Origin: Gemmatimonadota bacterium
Lineage (GTDB): Bacteria; Gemmatimonadota; Gemmatimonadetes; JACCXV01; JAHWKZ01
DNA length: 64,000 nucleotides
Assembly: GCA_050732875.1 (NCBI GenBank)
Contig: JBOHRQ010000005.1
Coordinates: 4,173 to 68,172 of the forward strand
Reading direction: 5' to 3'
Part shown: piece after piece, positions 53,651 through 56,574 of the stretch
Layout of the letters: every line of letters starts with the position of its first letter
Numbering within the stretch: the first letter of the stretch is position 1
Made by a program: the position numbers and the translations under genes
The notes under the pieces: model-generated
What the model was told of the DNA's origin: nothing
What the model saw: the letters and a program-made list of their open reading frames with translations, nothing else
Databases searched by the model: none

Positions 53651-53658
53651 GATCCGGA
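53651..53658. repeat. left copy of the 8-bp target-site duplication GATCCGGA
   Basis: Immediately outside IR-L; identical octamer at 56567-56574 immediately outside IR-R. Confidence 0.75.
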
Positions 53659-53680
53659 GGTAGTGGGTCAGTTTGAATGA
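53659..53680. repeat. IR-L of the IS1-family element
   Basis: ggtagtgggtcagtttgaatga; contains the transposase stop codon. Confidence 0.8.
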
Positions 53681-54516
53681 CCCGCCCTCTCCCGGTCCTC
53701 CAGGAGCGCCACAATGTCCTCGATCTTCCAGAGATGGTCGGTTACGCCCGCCGCCATAGCCGGGGTCATCCGGAGGCTCCGATGTATCCGGCAGTAGTTG
53801 TAGTACATGGAATGTAGGGCCACGGCGTGCGCCAGATTCGACCTTCTTGGAGAAGGCGTTTTAGCCGGGTGAACCGCCGCATGGACATACGCATCGTGAG
53901 GTTCTGCCGCTCCACGTAGGATGTACTGATACGGTGTGGGTCGGGATTGCCCTGGATCGTCTCAATGTCGATCCCGATGCACTTGGCCGGACTGTACCGC
54001 TTCTGCGGCTCGGGGTCGGTCCCGTAGATCTTCTGGAGCATAGCGTAGTCTACGCCCGCCCCGAAGGCGTCCTCGACGGCGCTCAGATACATGGAGTGCC
54101 TGTCCGTCGTGATCTGCGCCCGGCTGGCGAGCCGGGAGGCCAGGTCCTGCATGAAGTCGGTCGCCGTCCCCACGTCCCGCGAGCCGATCCGCCAAGTCGG
54201 GACGAGCTTTGAATCGGCGCAGATCGCCGTGAACGTCCAAACGTCCCCGTAGCCGAACGTCCGTTTGTACTCGTCGCGCAGGTTCTTCTGCTTCGCGTGG
54301 CAGAACGACCATATTTCATCACATTCCAACACTTGCAGGAGAGATCCAGTAGCTGCTCGTCCTGGTAGTCGGCGCAAACCGCGCCCAGGTCCCGTAGGAG
54401 CTTCAAGACCGTCCCTTTCGCCGTGTCGGTCATCCGGCAGGTCGCCCGGATCGAATTGCCCTCGACCAGGGCGGCGACGATCTGGCAACGCTTCTCTCTC
54501 TACTCAGCTTGTTCAT
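53668..54516 (-). pseudogene. IS1-family transposase gene broken by at least four frameshifts
   Basis: Consecutive family text lies in different frames. (1) MNKLSRE (ATG 54514-16; extra GA in the gagagagaag run). (2) EKRCQIVAALVEGNSIRATCRMTDTAKGTVLKLLRDLGAVCADYQDEQLLDLSCK. (3) LECDEIWSFCHAKQKNL...ISTSYVERQNLTMRMSMRRFTRL. (4) NAFSKKVE. (5) NLAHAVALHSMYYNYCRIHRSLRMTPAMAAGVTDHLWKIEDIVALLE...HSN*. Confidence 0.8.
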
Positions 54517-54582
54517 GGTTATAGTATACCTGACCGGTCAAGCATTTGTCAAGAGTACCTTCAAACCAGGAAGGGCGTACCC

Positions 54583-55062
54583 TTACGCTTCTACGGCCAC
54601 CCTGGACTGTTCTTCTGTCTGGATTTCTTGTCTCTCCGGTCGGAACACAGGAATGACGATGCCCCCCAGGCCCACCCGCGCCCCAATGGATTGCACACAT
54701 TCGCGCAGGTACGGCCAAGCATTATACGGCCCGTTCAATTCAGCGAAGTATTTCAGGGCGTCTTCCGGATAGGTCGCAGCACTCTCCAGCCGGTAGATGA
54801 GATCAAAGCCCACTTCGAGGAGCATGAGATTTTCGCCACCATCCTCGGCATTCACTTCAAAGCGCTGATCCACTCGAACAAAAATATGGTTGGGATGCTC
54901 GTCCGGAAGCCGGTACGCGGCACGGAAGCCAAGGGAAATCCCCATCTCCGCAGGAACGGCAAGGGGATCGAGATTCGTCGTCAGGTCAGCGGACGCCAGG
55001 GTCACGGACTCCAATTGAACCTGGCGCGCAACAATGCTCGCTCGTTCGATATTCGTAGTCAT
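54583..55062 (-). CDS. SecB-like chaperone (TAC-system chaperone)
   Basis: 159 aa. ...LMLLEVGFDLIYRL...LKYFAELNGPYNAWPYLRECVQSIGARVGLGGIVIPVF parallels E. coli SecB ...[32 protein letters not shown]. Confidence 0.8.
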   Translation of the reverse strand: MTTNIERASIVARQVQLESVTLASADLTTNLDPLAVPAEMGISLGFRAAYRLPDEHPNHIFVRVDQRFEVNAEDGGENLMLLEVGFDLIYRLESAATYPEDALKYFAELNGPYNAWPYLRECVQSIGARVGLGGIVIPVFRPERQEIQTEEQSRVAVEA

Positions 55063-55071
55063 AGTGCCCGC

Positions 55072-55458
55072 CTAGGCCACAAGCGTGTAGTTGTCCGGGA
55101 CAGGGCGCTCCGGATTGTCTTGGGCCGCGATCTTCTTGGGCTGTGGATAGCGCACCAGTCGAACCGGATGCTCAAAGTACTCTCCGACTTTCAGCGGTTC
55201 AAAATCGACCCGAACCCTGCTATCACAGGAGAACGCAAGATTCGCCAAAGTCCGAAGCGTCATGTTTCGGGACCCCCCCAGGACTTGAGTGATGTGAGAG
55301 GGGGTCGTTTCAAGATCGCGCGCCATATCGGCCTTGCTCTTTCCAGCCGTCTTCATGGCCCGAGCGACGATCTCCGTCGCCCACACAATCAGACGTTCCT
55401 GTTCATAAAGCCGTCGATTGGTGGGATTCCTGAGGATCTGCTTCATCCGCTCGTTCAT
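55072..55458 (-). CDS. higA: HigA-like XRE-family HTH antitoxin with a C-terminal extension
   Basis: 128 aa. HTH KSKADMARDLETTPSHITQVLGGSRNMTLRTLANLA. An approx. 50-aa tail beyond the HTH (candidate chaperone-addiction segment). 4-nt overlap with the toxin gene. Confidence 0.8.
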   Translation of the reverse strand: MNERMKQILRNPTNRRLYEQERLIVWATEIVARAMKTAGKSKADMARDLETTPSHITQVLGGSRNMTLRTLANLAFSCDSRVRVDFEPLKVGEYFEHPVRLVRYPQPKKIAAQDNPERPVPDNYTLVA

Positions 55459-55832
55459 TTGCGCCTCTCCAAAGCCTTAAAGTAGGCGGCCCTTACGTTC
55501 TCAGCTTTAGTAATGTCAGCCTTCTTATGCTTGTGCTTCTTCTTTTTCGTCCCATCGACCAGAATGAATTCTTTCCTCGGAGTAAAGAACCCCAGGATTC
55601 TGACCTGATGATGCTTAACCTCGAAGATTCCTTCGGAACCCTCGATCTTCTTGAATCGTTCCTTGTTGTGCAGCACGCCTTCATCGCCCAGCTTCTCAAA
55701 AGTCGGCTGCAGACTAGCGCTTTCCGAGTCCGAGAGAGAGCGGATGAAGTCGTCGGCTGGACAGCTGCCATCCTGGTATTCAACGCAGCGTATGGTCAGC
55801 TTACGCCCTTCATAGACAGGTTCCCTAGCCAC
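55455..55832 (-). CDS. higB: HigB/RelE-superfamily toxin (phage Gp49-like, DUF891 type)
   Basis: 125 aa, GTG start. ...KKIEGSEGIFEVKHHQVRILGFFTPRKEFILVDGTKKKKHK..KADITKAENVRAAY matches the Gp49-like pattern. Intact reading frame. Confidence 0.78.
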   Translation of the reverse strand: MAREPVYEGRKLTIRCVEYQDGSCPADDFIRSLSDSESASLQPTFEKLGDEGVLHNKERFKKIEGSEGIFEVKHHQVRILGFFTPRKEFILVDGTKKKKHKHKKADITKAENVRAAYFKALERRK

Positions 55833-55866
55833 ACGTTCGACAGGTAGCGTCCATCATGGGCCTGGA

Positions 55867-55896
55867 ATATTAACATAAATGTGAAACCCCTGTCAA
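55867..55896 (-). promoter_or_regulatory. near-consensus sigma70 promoter for the TAC operon
   Basis: Minus strand reads TTGACA (55896-55891), a 17/18-nt spacer, then TTAATA/TAATAT (55873-55867), about 35 nt upstream of GTG 55832. Confidence 0.6.
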
Positions 55897-55899
55897 GCG

Positions 55900-56163
55900 T
55901 CACTTTTTCCAGCGCGTTTCGGCGGCCAGCTTAGCGATCTCTGAGCGGCGCTTTTTGGTGAGCTTCCGGGCGCGGGCGGGGCCGCCCTTCAACCCACCGC
56001 GCCGCCCGAGCATCCGGGCGGCGGCTCGGCGCTCCTCCTCGGTCGGCTCCTCATCGTCCCGACCATCCGTCGCCTCGTCCACGATCCGGCGGGCGATTAC
56101 GTTCTCATCCTCGTCGGCGGGCTTCCGCTTGGCACGCTTTTTGTTGCTTTTCCGGTCAGGCAT
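55900..56163 (-). CDS. small highly charged protein, unknown function (cargo of the IS element)
   Basis: 87 aa. Lys/Arg-rich ends and an acidic middle. C-terminal GRRGGLKGGPARARKLTKKRRSEIAKLAAETRWKK. TAGAAT sits 6 nt upstream of the ATG. Confidence 0.5.
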   Translation of the reverse strand: MPDRKSNKKRAKRKPADEDENVIARRIVDEATDGRDDEEPTEEERRAAARMLGRRGGLKGGPARARKLTKKRRSEIAKLAAETRWKK

Positions 56164-56215
56164 ATTACTATTCTACTCCATGGGGGGCTGGGCGCGCAAG
56201 CGGAGGGACTAAGCG

Positions 56216-56557
56216 GTGGACTTCGGATACGTCGTCTTCATACTCGCTTGGGTCCTAGCCATCGGCTACTGGGTGACCCTTCGAGTGCTTAAGCCCGAAA
56301 CAAAGCATCGGCTGTACAAACGGCTCGTTTCTCTCTATGCAGGCGGATTGGCGCTCCTGTTCCTCGCTTGGGGCGCATCGGGCGGATGGCGCGGCATTGC
56401 CGGAATGGCAGTTATAGTCCTTCCATTTGCGGCCCTGATGACTTATGTGCTCCGACAGGTTCGCATTTGCTCCTCGTGCGGCGGGGTCACTCAGCCAAGA
56501 AATTTCTTCAAACCCGCCGATTATTGTCCGAAATGCGGAGCGCCTCATTCAAACTGA
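56216..56557 (+). CDS. small membrane protein with C-terminal zinc-ribbon (cargo of the IS element)
   Basis: 113 aa, GTG start with GGAGGGA RBS. Three TM segments, then CSSCGG...CPKCGAP. The last codons and stop lie inside IR-R. Confidence 0.5.
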   Translation: MDFGYVVFILAWVLAIGYWVTLRVLKPETKHRLYKRLVSLYAGGLALLFLAWGASGGWRGIAGMAVIVLPFAALMTYVLRQVRICSSCGGVTQPRNFFKPADYCPKCGAPHSN

Positions 56558-56566
56558 CCCACTACC
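56545..56566. repeat. IR-R of the IS1-family element
   Basis: tcattcaaactgacccactacc = exact reverse complement of 53659-53680. Confidence 0.8.
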
Positions 56567-56574
56567 GATCCGGA
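56567..56574. repeat. right copy of the 8-bp target-site duplication GATCCGGA
   Basis: Immediately outside IR-R. Confidence 0.75.

Follow-up and report, generated by a model that had tools for sequence, protein, structure and literature searches.

A young IS1-related insertion with a broken transposase gene and a toxin-antitoxin-chaperone cargo in a Gemmatimonadota genome

A contig of a Gemmatimonadota bacterium (JBOHRQ010000005.1 of assembly GCA_050732875.1, positions 4,173 to 68,172) was analyzed as a window of 64,000 nucleotides (nt); "the window" denotes this whole stretch, and all positions are counted within it. Between positions 53651 and 56574 the window contains what is, with high probability, the product of one insertion event of a 2.9-kb IS1-related transposon with a broken transposase gene and an intact toxin-antitoxin-chaperone (TAC) cargo. 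A transporter insertion sequence of a large IS1-related family would have inserted once, duplicating 8 bp of its target, after the split from sister species that keep the empty site; four indels, together with the replacement of Gly by Arg next to a catalytic Asp, would since have put its transposase out of action. Taken alone, the window copy is unremarkable, being a recent insertion with a transposase that is already defunct; the interest lies in the family revealed by it.

Ends, empty site and transposase of the element

The sequence GGTAGTGGGTCAGTTTGAATGA forms both ends of the element in inverted orientation (perfect over 22 nt and 93% identical over 27 nt). It is present in exactly two copies in the window (0 expected, 100 shuffles), and the octamer GATCCGGA stands directly outside each of them (Table 1). 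The element is 2,908 bp long (53659-56566). The repeats and the 8-bp direct repeat had been described in an initial annotation made from the letters alone, which read them as the trace of a single transposition event; both were located as described, and the single event is borne out by empty sites in related genomes.

These empty sites, a check proposed in the initial annotation, were found by deleting the element in silico, with one octamer kept, and by fetching related loci (given L numbers below) via the flanking peptidoglycan (PG)-binding protein. The element-deleted window and the locus of a related Gemmatimonadota metagenome-assembled genome (MAG; L151) form a single unbroken alignment across the junction (84.5% over 4,341 nt), and two further loci (L152 and L154) also align across it. 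At the junction L151 reads GGGGGTTTCTGACGCCCGGG and the window GGGATGGATCCGGAGGCCGGG, i.e., L151 has one slightly diverged target copy and no 2.9-kb insert; the octamer is therefore not naturally duplicated at this site. Two independent Logan assemblies, of two sequencing runs, are 100% identical to window positions 54144-56800, including the right-hand junction.

The element is compositionally foreign, as judged from its GC content (0.58 vs 0.675 in the window) and from the third-position GC content of the cargo (about 0.60-0.67 vs 0.83-0.90 for the flanking genes), the comparison with the flanks having been proposed in the initial annotation. With its perfect ends, perfect duplication and foreign composition, the insertion is young. 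It lies within a region of ~230 bp between a divergent outer membrane protein (OMP) beta-barrel gene (ATG at 53514) and the PG-binding gene. The divergent intergenic location and the beta-barrel start agree with the initial annotation; the PG-binding gene had been started at 56619, and a start at 56655 is more likely, with AGGAGG 8 nt upstream that is conserved in L151.

The transposase gene can be read on the minus strand, from 54516 to 53668, only with four frame changes (+2, -1, -2 and -2), which were placed against the nearest transposase relative (L052; 86% nucleotide sequence identity) and match the earlier count of at least four breaks. Moreover, Arg replaces a family-invariant Gly adjoining the presumed second catalytic Asp (54102-54104). 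Two of the four indels (+2 and -1) are reproduced exactly in the Logan assemblies. Judged from its sequence, the transposase is dead and this copy is unable to move by itself.

The lesions of L052 are different (two 1-bp insertions and an in-frame TAG), none of the window's indels being at a shared position, and L052 therefore decayed independently. The dN/dS ratio between the two genes is 0.064 (dS 0.58; 278 comparable codons), so their divergence accrued mostly while both copies were functional, and each was inactivated recently. A shared insertion site of L052 and the window, suggested by BLAST overhang, was rejected, since the flanks are unrelated in alignment. The L052 pseudogene (2473-3374) abuts a small AlpA/excisionase-like open reading frame (ORF; 3398-3868), and L052 and L072, both from a single MAG, could represent opposite ends of an element that is interrupted by an assembly gap.

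After conceptual repair, the transposase is best matched by the NCBIfam model NF033558 (transpos_IS1; E 8.8e-16, 58.4 bits against a curated cutoff of 100), the next families (IS481, IS6 and IS1595) being at least 11 orders of magnitude behind (E 1e-4 or worse). It shares 54-66% amino acid sequence identity with intact single-ORF relatives, and those with 54-60% identity that lie on plasmids of cultured bacteria are labeled "IS1 family transposase" by the NCBI annotation pipeline (PGAP). The earlier assignment to an IS1-type element is supported by the GGnnnTG ends, the 8-bp duplication and the best NCBIfam model.

Table 1. Features of the element and its target site (window positions; HTH, helix-turn-helix; HMM, hidden Markov model; aa, amino acids).
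Feature	Position	Strand	Evidence
Target-site duplication GATCCGGA, left copy, 8 bp	53651..53658	.	Sequence; related empty sites hold a single target
Terminal inverted repeat, transposase end; family core is the first 19 nt, GGTAGTGGGTCAGTTTGAA	53659..53680	+	
IS1-related DDE transposase pseudogene, 283 aa after conceptual repair	53668..54516	-	Four frame changes; NCBIfam
Two separate 2-bp deletions (near 53861 and near 53838), C-terminal part of transposase	53838..53861	-	L052 frame intact there
AGG (Arg) for the family-invariant Gly of the TTDGH motif	54099..54101	-	Relatives all T/S-D-G
1-bp deletion, LDLSCK / VLECDEIW	54333..54334	-	L052 alignment; two independent assemblies
2-bp insertion (GA on coding strand) in (GA)n run; frame lost after codon 5	54493..54494	-	L052 alignment; two assemblies
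Promoter-like TTGACA-18-TATACT upstream of transposase ATG	54523..54552	-	11/12 matches; conserved in L052
SecB-like chaperone of the TAC module, 159 aa	54583..55062	-	Family profile; AF2 model and Foldseek; PADLOC
HTH antitoxin, 128 aa	55072..55458	-	HTH_31 below cutoff; PHROG; PADLOC PDC-M64B/C
Gp49/HigB-like (RelE-superfamily) toxin, 125 aa	55455..55832	-	Pfam; conserved gene order
Strong promoter-like TTGACA-18-(TG)TAATAT upstream of toxin gene, presumed TAC operon promoter	55867..55896	-	
87-aa basic helical protein, family backbone gene	55900..56163	-	Homologues beside same repeat; HMM census
Orphan ORF, 113 aa, three hydrophobic segments, C-terminal CxxC...CxxC	56216..56557	+	ORF call
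Terminal inverted repeat, small-gene end	56545..56566	-	Sequence; repeat search; shuffles; family consensus
Target-site duplication GATCCGGA, right copy, 8 bp	56567..56574	.	Sequence; junction seen in two independent assemblies

The toxin-antitoxin-chaperone cargo

Homology and gene order identify the cargo as a genuine TAC operon. The predicted toxin matches Pfam PF05973 (Gp49) at 38.5 bits (cutoff 23.9), and the antitoxin gene overlaps its stop codon by 4 bp. The predicted antitoxin matches a PHROG transcriptional regulator family (4e-9) and PADLOC models PDC-M64B/C, and its homologue in L062 (45% identical) has an HTH_3 domain. Its HTH region is followed by a tail of ~40 aa, which is composed of a conserved aromatic stretch (EPLkvGeyFeHPV) and a variable end.

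The chaperone gave no Pfam match as a single sequence and reached the NCBIfam SecB model only at E 0.1. Its family consists of 24 proteins without annotation; the profile of this family, when compared with PDB sequences, matches 5mtw_C (Rv1957 of the Mycobacterium tuberculosis TAC system) at E 2.3e-4. The AF2 model (pLDDT 89.6) has 5mtw as its top Foldseek match (TM 0.84, E 7.6e-10), followed by the SecB proteins of Escherichia coli and Haemophilus influenzae. The PADLOC match is PD-T4-9_C, the chaperone of CmdTAC (PMC9519451). These matches substantiate the SecB-like, HigA-like and HigB-like assignments of the initial annotation, and all five non-transposase ORFs listed there are intact and in place.

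The three genes also occur as a unit in a prophage (L061), and the other elements of the family that carry the trio represent at least three other lineages: L060, L062-67 (transposase intact) and L101. In the comparison with L060, pN is 0.13-0.20 and pS 0.57-0.78 for all three genes, i.e., pN is far below pS, and the TAC genes are therefore under purifying selection (omega 0.13 for the chaperone and 0.18 for the antitoxin; the synonymous sites of the toxin are saturated).

The order of toxin, antitoxin and SecB-like chaperone is that of the M. tuberculosis HigB1-HigA1-Rv1957, E. coli HigBAC and CmdTAC systems, which share with the window module a Gp49/HigB-type toxin, an HTH antitoxin with a C-terminal tail and a chaperone whose nearest structure is Rv1957. 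The window chaperone has ~15% sequence identity to Rv1957, and chaperone dependence is predicted by analogy. A further difference is the carrier, which is an insertion sequence here, whereas the described modules are located on chromosomes or prophages.

By analogy with the characterized systems (PMC5105189, PMC6377645, PMC9519451, bioRxiv 10.1101/2024.02.24.581848), the HigB/Gp49-type toxin would act as a ribosome-dependent mRNA nuclease. The HTH antitoxin would neutralize it and would be degraded unless the SecB-like chaperone binds its C-terminal tail. If a phage structural protein titrated the chaperone, or if the locus were lost, the toxin would be set free and the cell arrested. Phage-triggered abortive infection is, in our opinion, the most likely selected function of the module; the penalty for its deletion would be a side effect, which could explain why the cargo is intact while the transposase decays.

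A family of elements with a second gene and a cargo bay

As suggested in the initial annotation, the repeat was searched for in other genomes. The exact 22-mer was found in 56 loci, from Chloroflexota, Acidobacteriota, Actinomycetota, Proteobacteria, Planctomycetota, Gemmatimonadota and other phyla. When ends were paired and an exact 8-bp duplication was required, 51 other distinct elements with the same 19-bp ends were obtained (84 bp to 5.3 kb), including three on plasmids of cultured Mesorhizobium loti, Acidiphilium multivorum and Hoeflea sp. The consensus of the 19-bp ends is GGTAGTG(g/t)(g/c)TCAGTTTGAA at both ends (46 elements), and GGTAGTG is present at both window ends. No target-site preference was seen across the family.

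The transposase-bearing elements share one architecture. Between the two repeats lie, in this order, an optional slot, the small gene, the cargo bay, the transposase with its promoter and a further optional slot; the transposase ends at or inside the repeat opposite the small gene. The shortest transposase-bearing relative is 1,972 bp long, and in all of them the bay that separates the two backbone genes is filled with cargo. The size of four times a canonical IS1, which had been pointed out for the window copy, is correct (2,908 bp) and is not peculiar to it. The closest backbone is that of L071 (transposase 88% and small protein 75% identical at the amino acid level), whose homology to the window is confined to the small gene (56164-55922) and to the promoter and transposase (from 54553). 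L071 has a DNA methyltransferase in place of the TAC module and an unrelated membrane protein in place of the 113-aa ORF. With L072, the homology is confined to the small gene.

The 87-aa charged protein had been listed among the cargo; this proved wrong, as it is encoded by a backbone gene found with an HMM in 44 of 45 complete transposase-bearing elements. In 43 of the 45 the gene lies upstream of the transposase and is co-directional with it. Conversely, among loci seeded on the small protein with enough downstream sequence, 53 of 60 had an IS1-like transposase within 4.5 kb downstream. The protein family is very large: at E up to 1e-3 it comprises 11,845 representative clusters (~12,000 clusters counted at 50% identity). 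Neither the window protein nor 28 homologues had a Pfam match, and the window protein matched no NCBIfam or PADLOC model and a single PHROG family, to which no function is assigned. In the M. loti element, PGAP calls it "histone H1" (L068:2575-2784; CP050295.1 470622-470831), a label that is probably a low-complexity artefact hiding the second gene of the element. This element measures 3,370 bp and occupies positions 470343-473712 of plasmid p_1 of M. loti 582 (CP050295.1), and its transposase is intact. We guess that the small protein is most likely a DNA-binding regulator or an accessory factor of transposition.

A possible operator was recognized in the promoter regions. The spacer of the transposase promoter holds ATGCTTGACCGG as part of the palindrome CCTGACCGGTCAGG, which contains the 12-bp family motif ATGCYTGASCGG. 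The motif is ~18-fold enriched in the family (37 observed vs 2 in shuffles) and keeps a fixed position, preceding the transposase start by 21-38 nt or coinciding with the start codon of the small gene; the window sites are at 54526-54545 (palindromic) and 56152-56163. This distribution suggests an operator shared by the transposase and the small gene, and the small protein might itself act at the motif, both at the 5' end of its gene and in the promoter of the transposase. An alternative promoter of the kind known from the left end of IS1, with a -35 sequence (TTGAAa) at the inner edge of the repeat, was rejected: a well-spaced -10 followed it in 1 of 29 elements.

The cargo of the relatives often consists of toxin-antitoxin or anti-phage genes. 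The commonest set, in 7 elements, is HigB with an Xre-M78 peptidase and a partner (PD-Lambda-2_B, E 1e-23, near full length); it resembles the PD-Lambda-2 system (HigB, Xre-M78 peptidase and a third gene; PMC9519451), a likeness at the sequence level that concerns these relatives and not the window copy. ClpP-like SDH proteases account for 5 ORFs from 4 elements, and Gp49-HTH pairs with a DUF3467-like third gene were found in L010 and L111. Further cargo includes Fic, an N6/N4 methylase-Mrr fusion, a STAND NTPase, Schlafen/AlbA, SNase and a ParA-like ATPase, among others. A RES-Xre pair considered as cargo of the Acidiphilium plasmid element was discarded, as it is located outside the repeat.

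Classical IS1 elements are compact (about 0.7-1.2 kb), have no passenger genes and express insA and insB' joined by a programmed -1 frameshift. The present family resembles them in its DDE transposase with best match to the IS1 model, N-terminal transposase HTH, GGnnnTG ends and 8-bp duplication. It differs in the lack of a zinc finger and of the insA/insB' two-frame arrangement (intact relatives have one ORF of 272-287 aa), in its size (2-5 kb rather than 0.77 kb), in the extra conserved small gene at the opposite end and in the cargo bay, which is always located between the two backbone genes. Since ~40 of 46 relatives have a single uninterrupted transposase ORF, no programmed frameshift is involved. 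Besides classical IS1, ISfinder distinguishes single-ORF and "ISMhu11" subgroups, with ISMhu11 elements of up to about 4.6 kb, and its curators may have members of the family already.

Transporter insertion sequences are insertion sequence derivatives carrying passenger genes (PMC9330008). The window element is alike in that such ends and a target duplication enclose a transposase and unrelated passenger genes; the differences are that cargo is the rule for the whole family, is placed in a fixed slot and is accompanied by a second conserved backbone gene. In the Tn3 family, toxin-antitoxin (TA) modules, Gp49 included, likewise lie between transposition genes and not among distal passengers, and they were acquired repeatedly, so that close backbones have different cargo (PMC7157771). 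This analogy concerns the layout only: the transposase is IS1-like and of 280 aa, not a TnpA of about 1,000 aa, there are no 38-bp repeats and no resolvase/res site, and the duplication is of 8 bp, not 5 bp. The module found here is tripartite, and the survey of the Tn3 family explicitly found no TAC (PMC7157771).

The literature searches yielded no account of IS1 relatives in which a small second gene is obligatory and the cargo bay fixed, none of a TAC system on an insertion sequence, and no match for "ISMhu11" and passenger genes in the IS1 family. We tentatively propose, at somewhat less than even probability, a very large, cross-phylum and undescribed IS1-related family with an obligatory second gene, for a protein of ~85 aa, and a fixed cargo bay biased toward defence and TA modules (TAC, PD-Lambda-2-like, Fic, methylase-Mrr, Schlafen and STAND), in which the protein encoded by the second gene would be a new kind of transposition regulator acting at the ATGCYTGASCGG operator. 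If so, a common class of small transposons is misannotated as a lone "IS1 family transposase" beside "hypothetical" or "histone H1" genes, and the real boundaries, second backbone gene and cargo of such elements have been overlooked so far; the 19-bp ends would be a simple means of delimiting thousands of them. Such elements would constitute a compact vehicle of 2-5 kb moving TA and anti-phage modules between distant phyla, adding to the carriage of such modules by Tn3-family and Tn7-like transposons, the latter being known for defence cargo (PMC8649781). As far as the accessible literature shows, this is also the first placement of a chaperone-gated TA system on an insertion sequence, and several natural TAC variants with intact transposases are on offer for experiments.

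Weighing of the alternatives and accompanying features

Several points tell against the interpretation as an IS1-related transposon with a TAC cargo. With regard to the IS1 assignment, these are the sub-cutoff score and the single-ORF organization of the intact relatives. With regard to the event, the left junction and the lesions near 53838 and 53861 are known from a single MAG assembly. With regard to the cargo, the functions of toxin, antitoxin and chaperone are predicted from homology; the HTH_31 match of the antitoxin (20.9 bits) is below the Pfam cutoff, toxin and antitoxin had no meaningful match to any solved structure among PDB sequences, and the antitoxin tail is compatible with a chaperone-addiction (ChAD) segment, for which the conserved aromatic stretch makes it a candidate. 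The AF2 model of the 87-aa protein (pLDDT 72) gave no Foldseek match at E < 5, and the 113-aa ORF may not be a gene, its coding status being uncertain. Finally, the data are compatible with defence as well as with addiction, which are not mutually exclusive, and addiction is a reasonable alternative as a function of the module.

It is possible, if somewhat doubtful, that the element is not immobilized at all and behaves like a miniature inverted-repeat transposable element (MITE), being non-autonomous and moved in trans by intact transposases of the family. The two repeats are free of mismatches and agree with the consensus of the family, so a related transposase could still mobilize the copy. 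The family has many transposase-less derivatives (84 to 762 bp) with fresh 8-bp duplications, and L015 is a 2.5-kb relative bounded by inverted repeats that carries cargo and no transposase, although the exact duplication is absent. The sister MAG has related copies elsewhere (L052 and L072). The Logan contigs L058 and L059 both break off within the transposase gene, less than 10 bp apart (54144 and 54153), as near-identical copies in the sample would cause, which suggests that such transposase copies exist elsewhere in these samples. However, the 64-kb window contains no further copy of the repeat or transposase, an intact close relative (>90% identity) was not found, and the nearest one, L052, is also dead.

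The suggestion of the initial annotation that the addiction module may maintain the immobilized element is plausible, with anti-phage defence at least as likely; that the TAC module is purely an addiction cassette, which by post-segregational killing alone retains the dead element, appears unlikely, though not to be neglected. All four indels lie in the transposase and the ~1.25 kb of TAC coding sequence is unbroken; the comparison with L060 shows purifying selection on the TAC genes, and TA pairs in the transposition modules of the Tn3 family are proposed transposon stabilizers and shown plasmid stabilizers (PMC7157771). Yet the selection measured against L060 predates the death of the transposase, and in so young an insertion, with perfect ends and duplication, retention needs no special cause yet. 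Moreover, the TAC systems tested so far are anti-phage abortive infection systems with the chaperone as phage sensor (PMC9519451; bioRxiv 10.1101/2024.02.24.581848), and the other cargo of the family is as defence-like as TA-like (PD-Lambda-2-like, methylase-Mrr, Schlafen/AlbA and STAND NTPase).

Sequencing or assembly errors in an intact transposase gene are a very improbable source of the frameshifts. The contig comes from a MAG, a (GA)n run prone to slippage errors is the site of the +2 lesion, and the lesions near 53838 and 53861 were seen in one assembly only; against this, two runs that were assembled independently both show the +2 and -1 lesions exactly, only one of the four lesions lies in a simple repeat (two being 2-bp deletions), the neighboring genes are without frameshift, the invariant Gly beside the catalytic Asp is replaced too, and the independent decay of L052 indicates that such pseudogenes are common in the lineage. 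A pseudo-compound structure, with two separate insertions of solo ends or MITEs bracketing resident genes, is conceivable in a family with MITE-like derivatives and is effectively refuted by the empty sites, related genomes lacking the whole 2.9 kb; in addition, the identical 8-bp duplication is on the outer sides only, the internal order is the standard architecture of the family and the whole insert is compositionally foreign.

The 113-aa ORF takes up the optional slot that separates the small gene from the repeat and that is absent from the related TAC-bearing L060. It had been called a membrane zinc-ribbon protein; its three hydrophobic segments and CxxC...CxxC motifs are present, whereas its status as a gene is doubtful. 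Among 5.8 billion proteins the ORF itself was the single match, no codon-position signal was seen in it, and zinc-ribbon matches were sub-threshold only.

The terminal repeat contains TCATTCAAACTGA, and the transposase and the 113-aa ORF both finish in H-S-N-stop inside the repeats (53668-53680 and 56545-56557). ORFs at the ends of other elements (L010, L003 and L053) likewise finish in ...SN-stop within the repeat, and the repeat therefore provides a stop codon to outward-reading genes.

The MITE-like derivatives with the same ends and exact 8-bp duplications are L043:7173-7256, L026:6157-6349, L139:8079-8270, L003:3192-3650 and L007:1257-2018. The L007 derivative keeps the small gene only. 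The L003 derivative (459 bp) holds one 143-aa ORF resembling STAS-type anti-sigma factor antagonists, which stops inside the repeat, and would be a transposase-less mini cargo carrier. Similar pairs of inverted repeats, 461-462 bp in length and without an exact duplication, were found at L023:2287-2747 and L030:41-502. In L020 (1295-2605), an apparent nested IS3-type transposase (436 aa) is placed in the slot beyond the element's own transposase.

In the flanks, the 5' end of the PG-binding gene contains a perfect 15-bp tandem duplication (GCTTTCTGCTGCAAC x2; 56657-56686), encoding LSAAT-LSAAT in the signal-peptide region, and the L151 orthologue does not have it. Around the site of insertion there are three paralogous OMP beta-barrel genes (PF13505; 52126-52788, 52873-53514 and 57497-58684), and this arrangement is kept in the related MAG loci.

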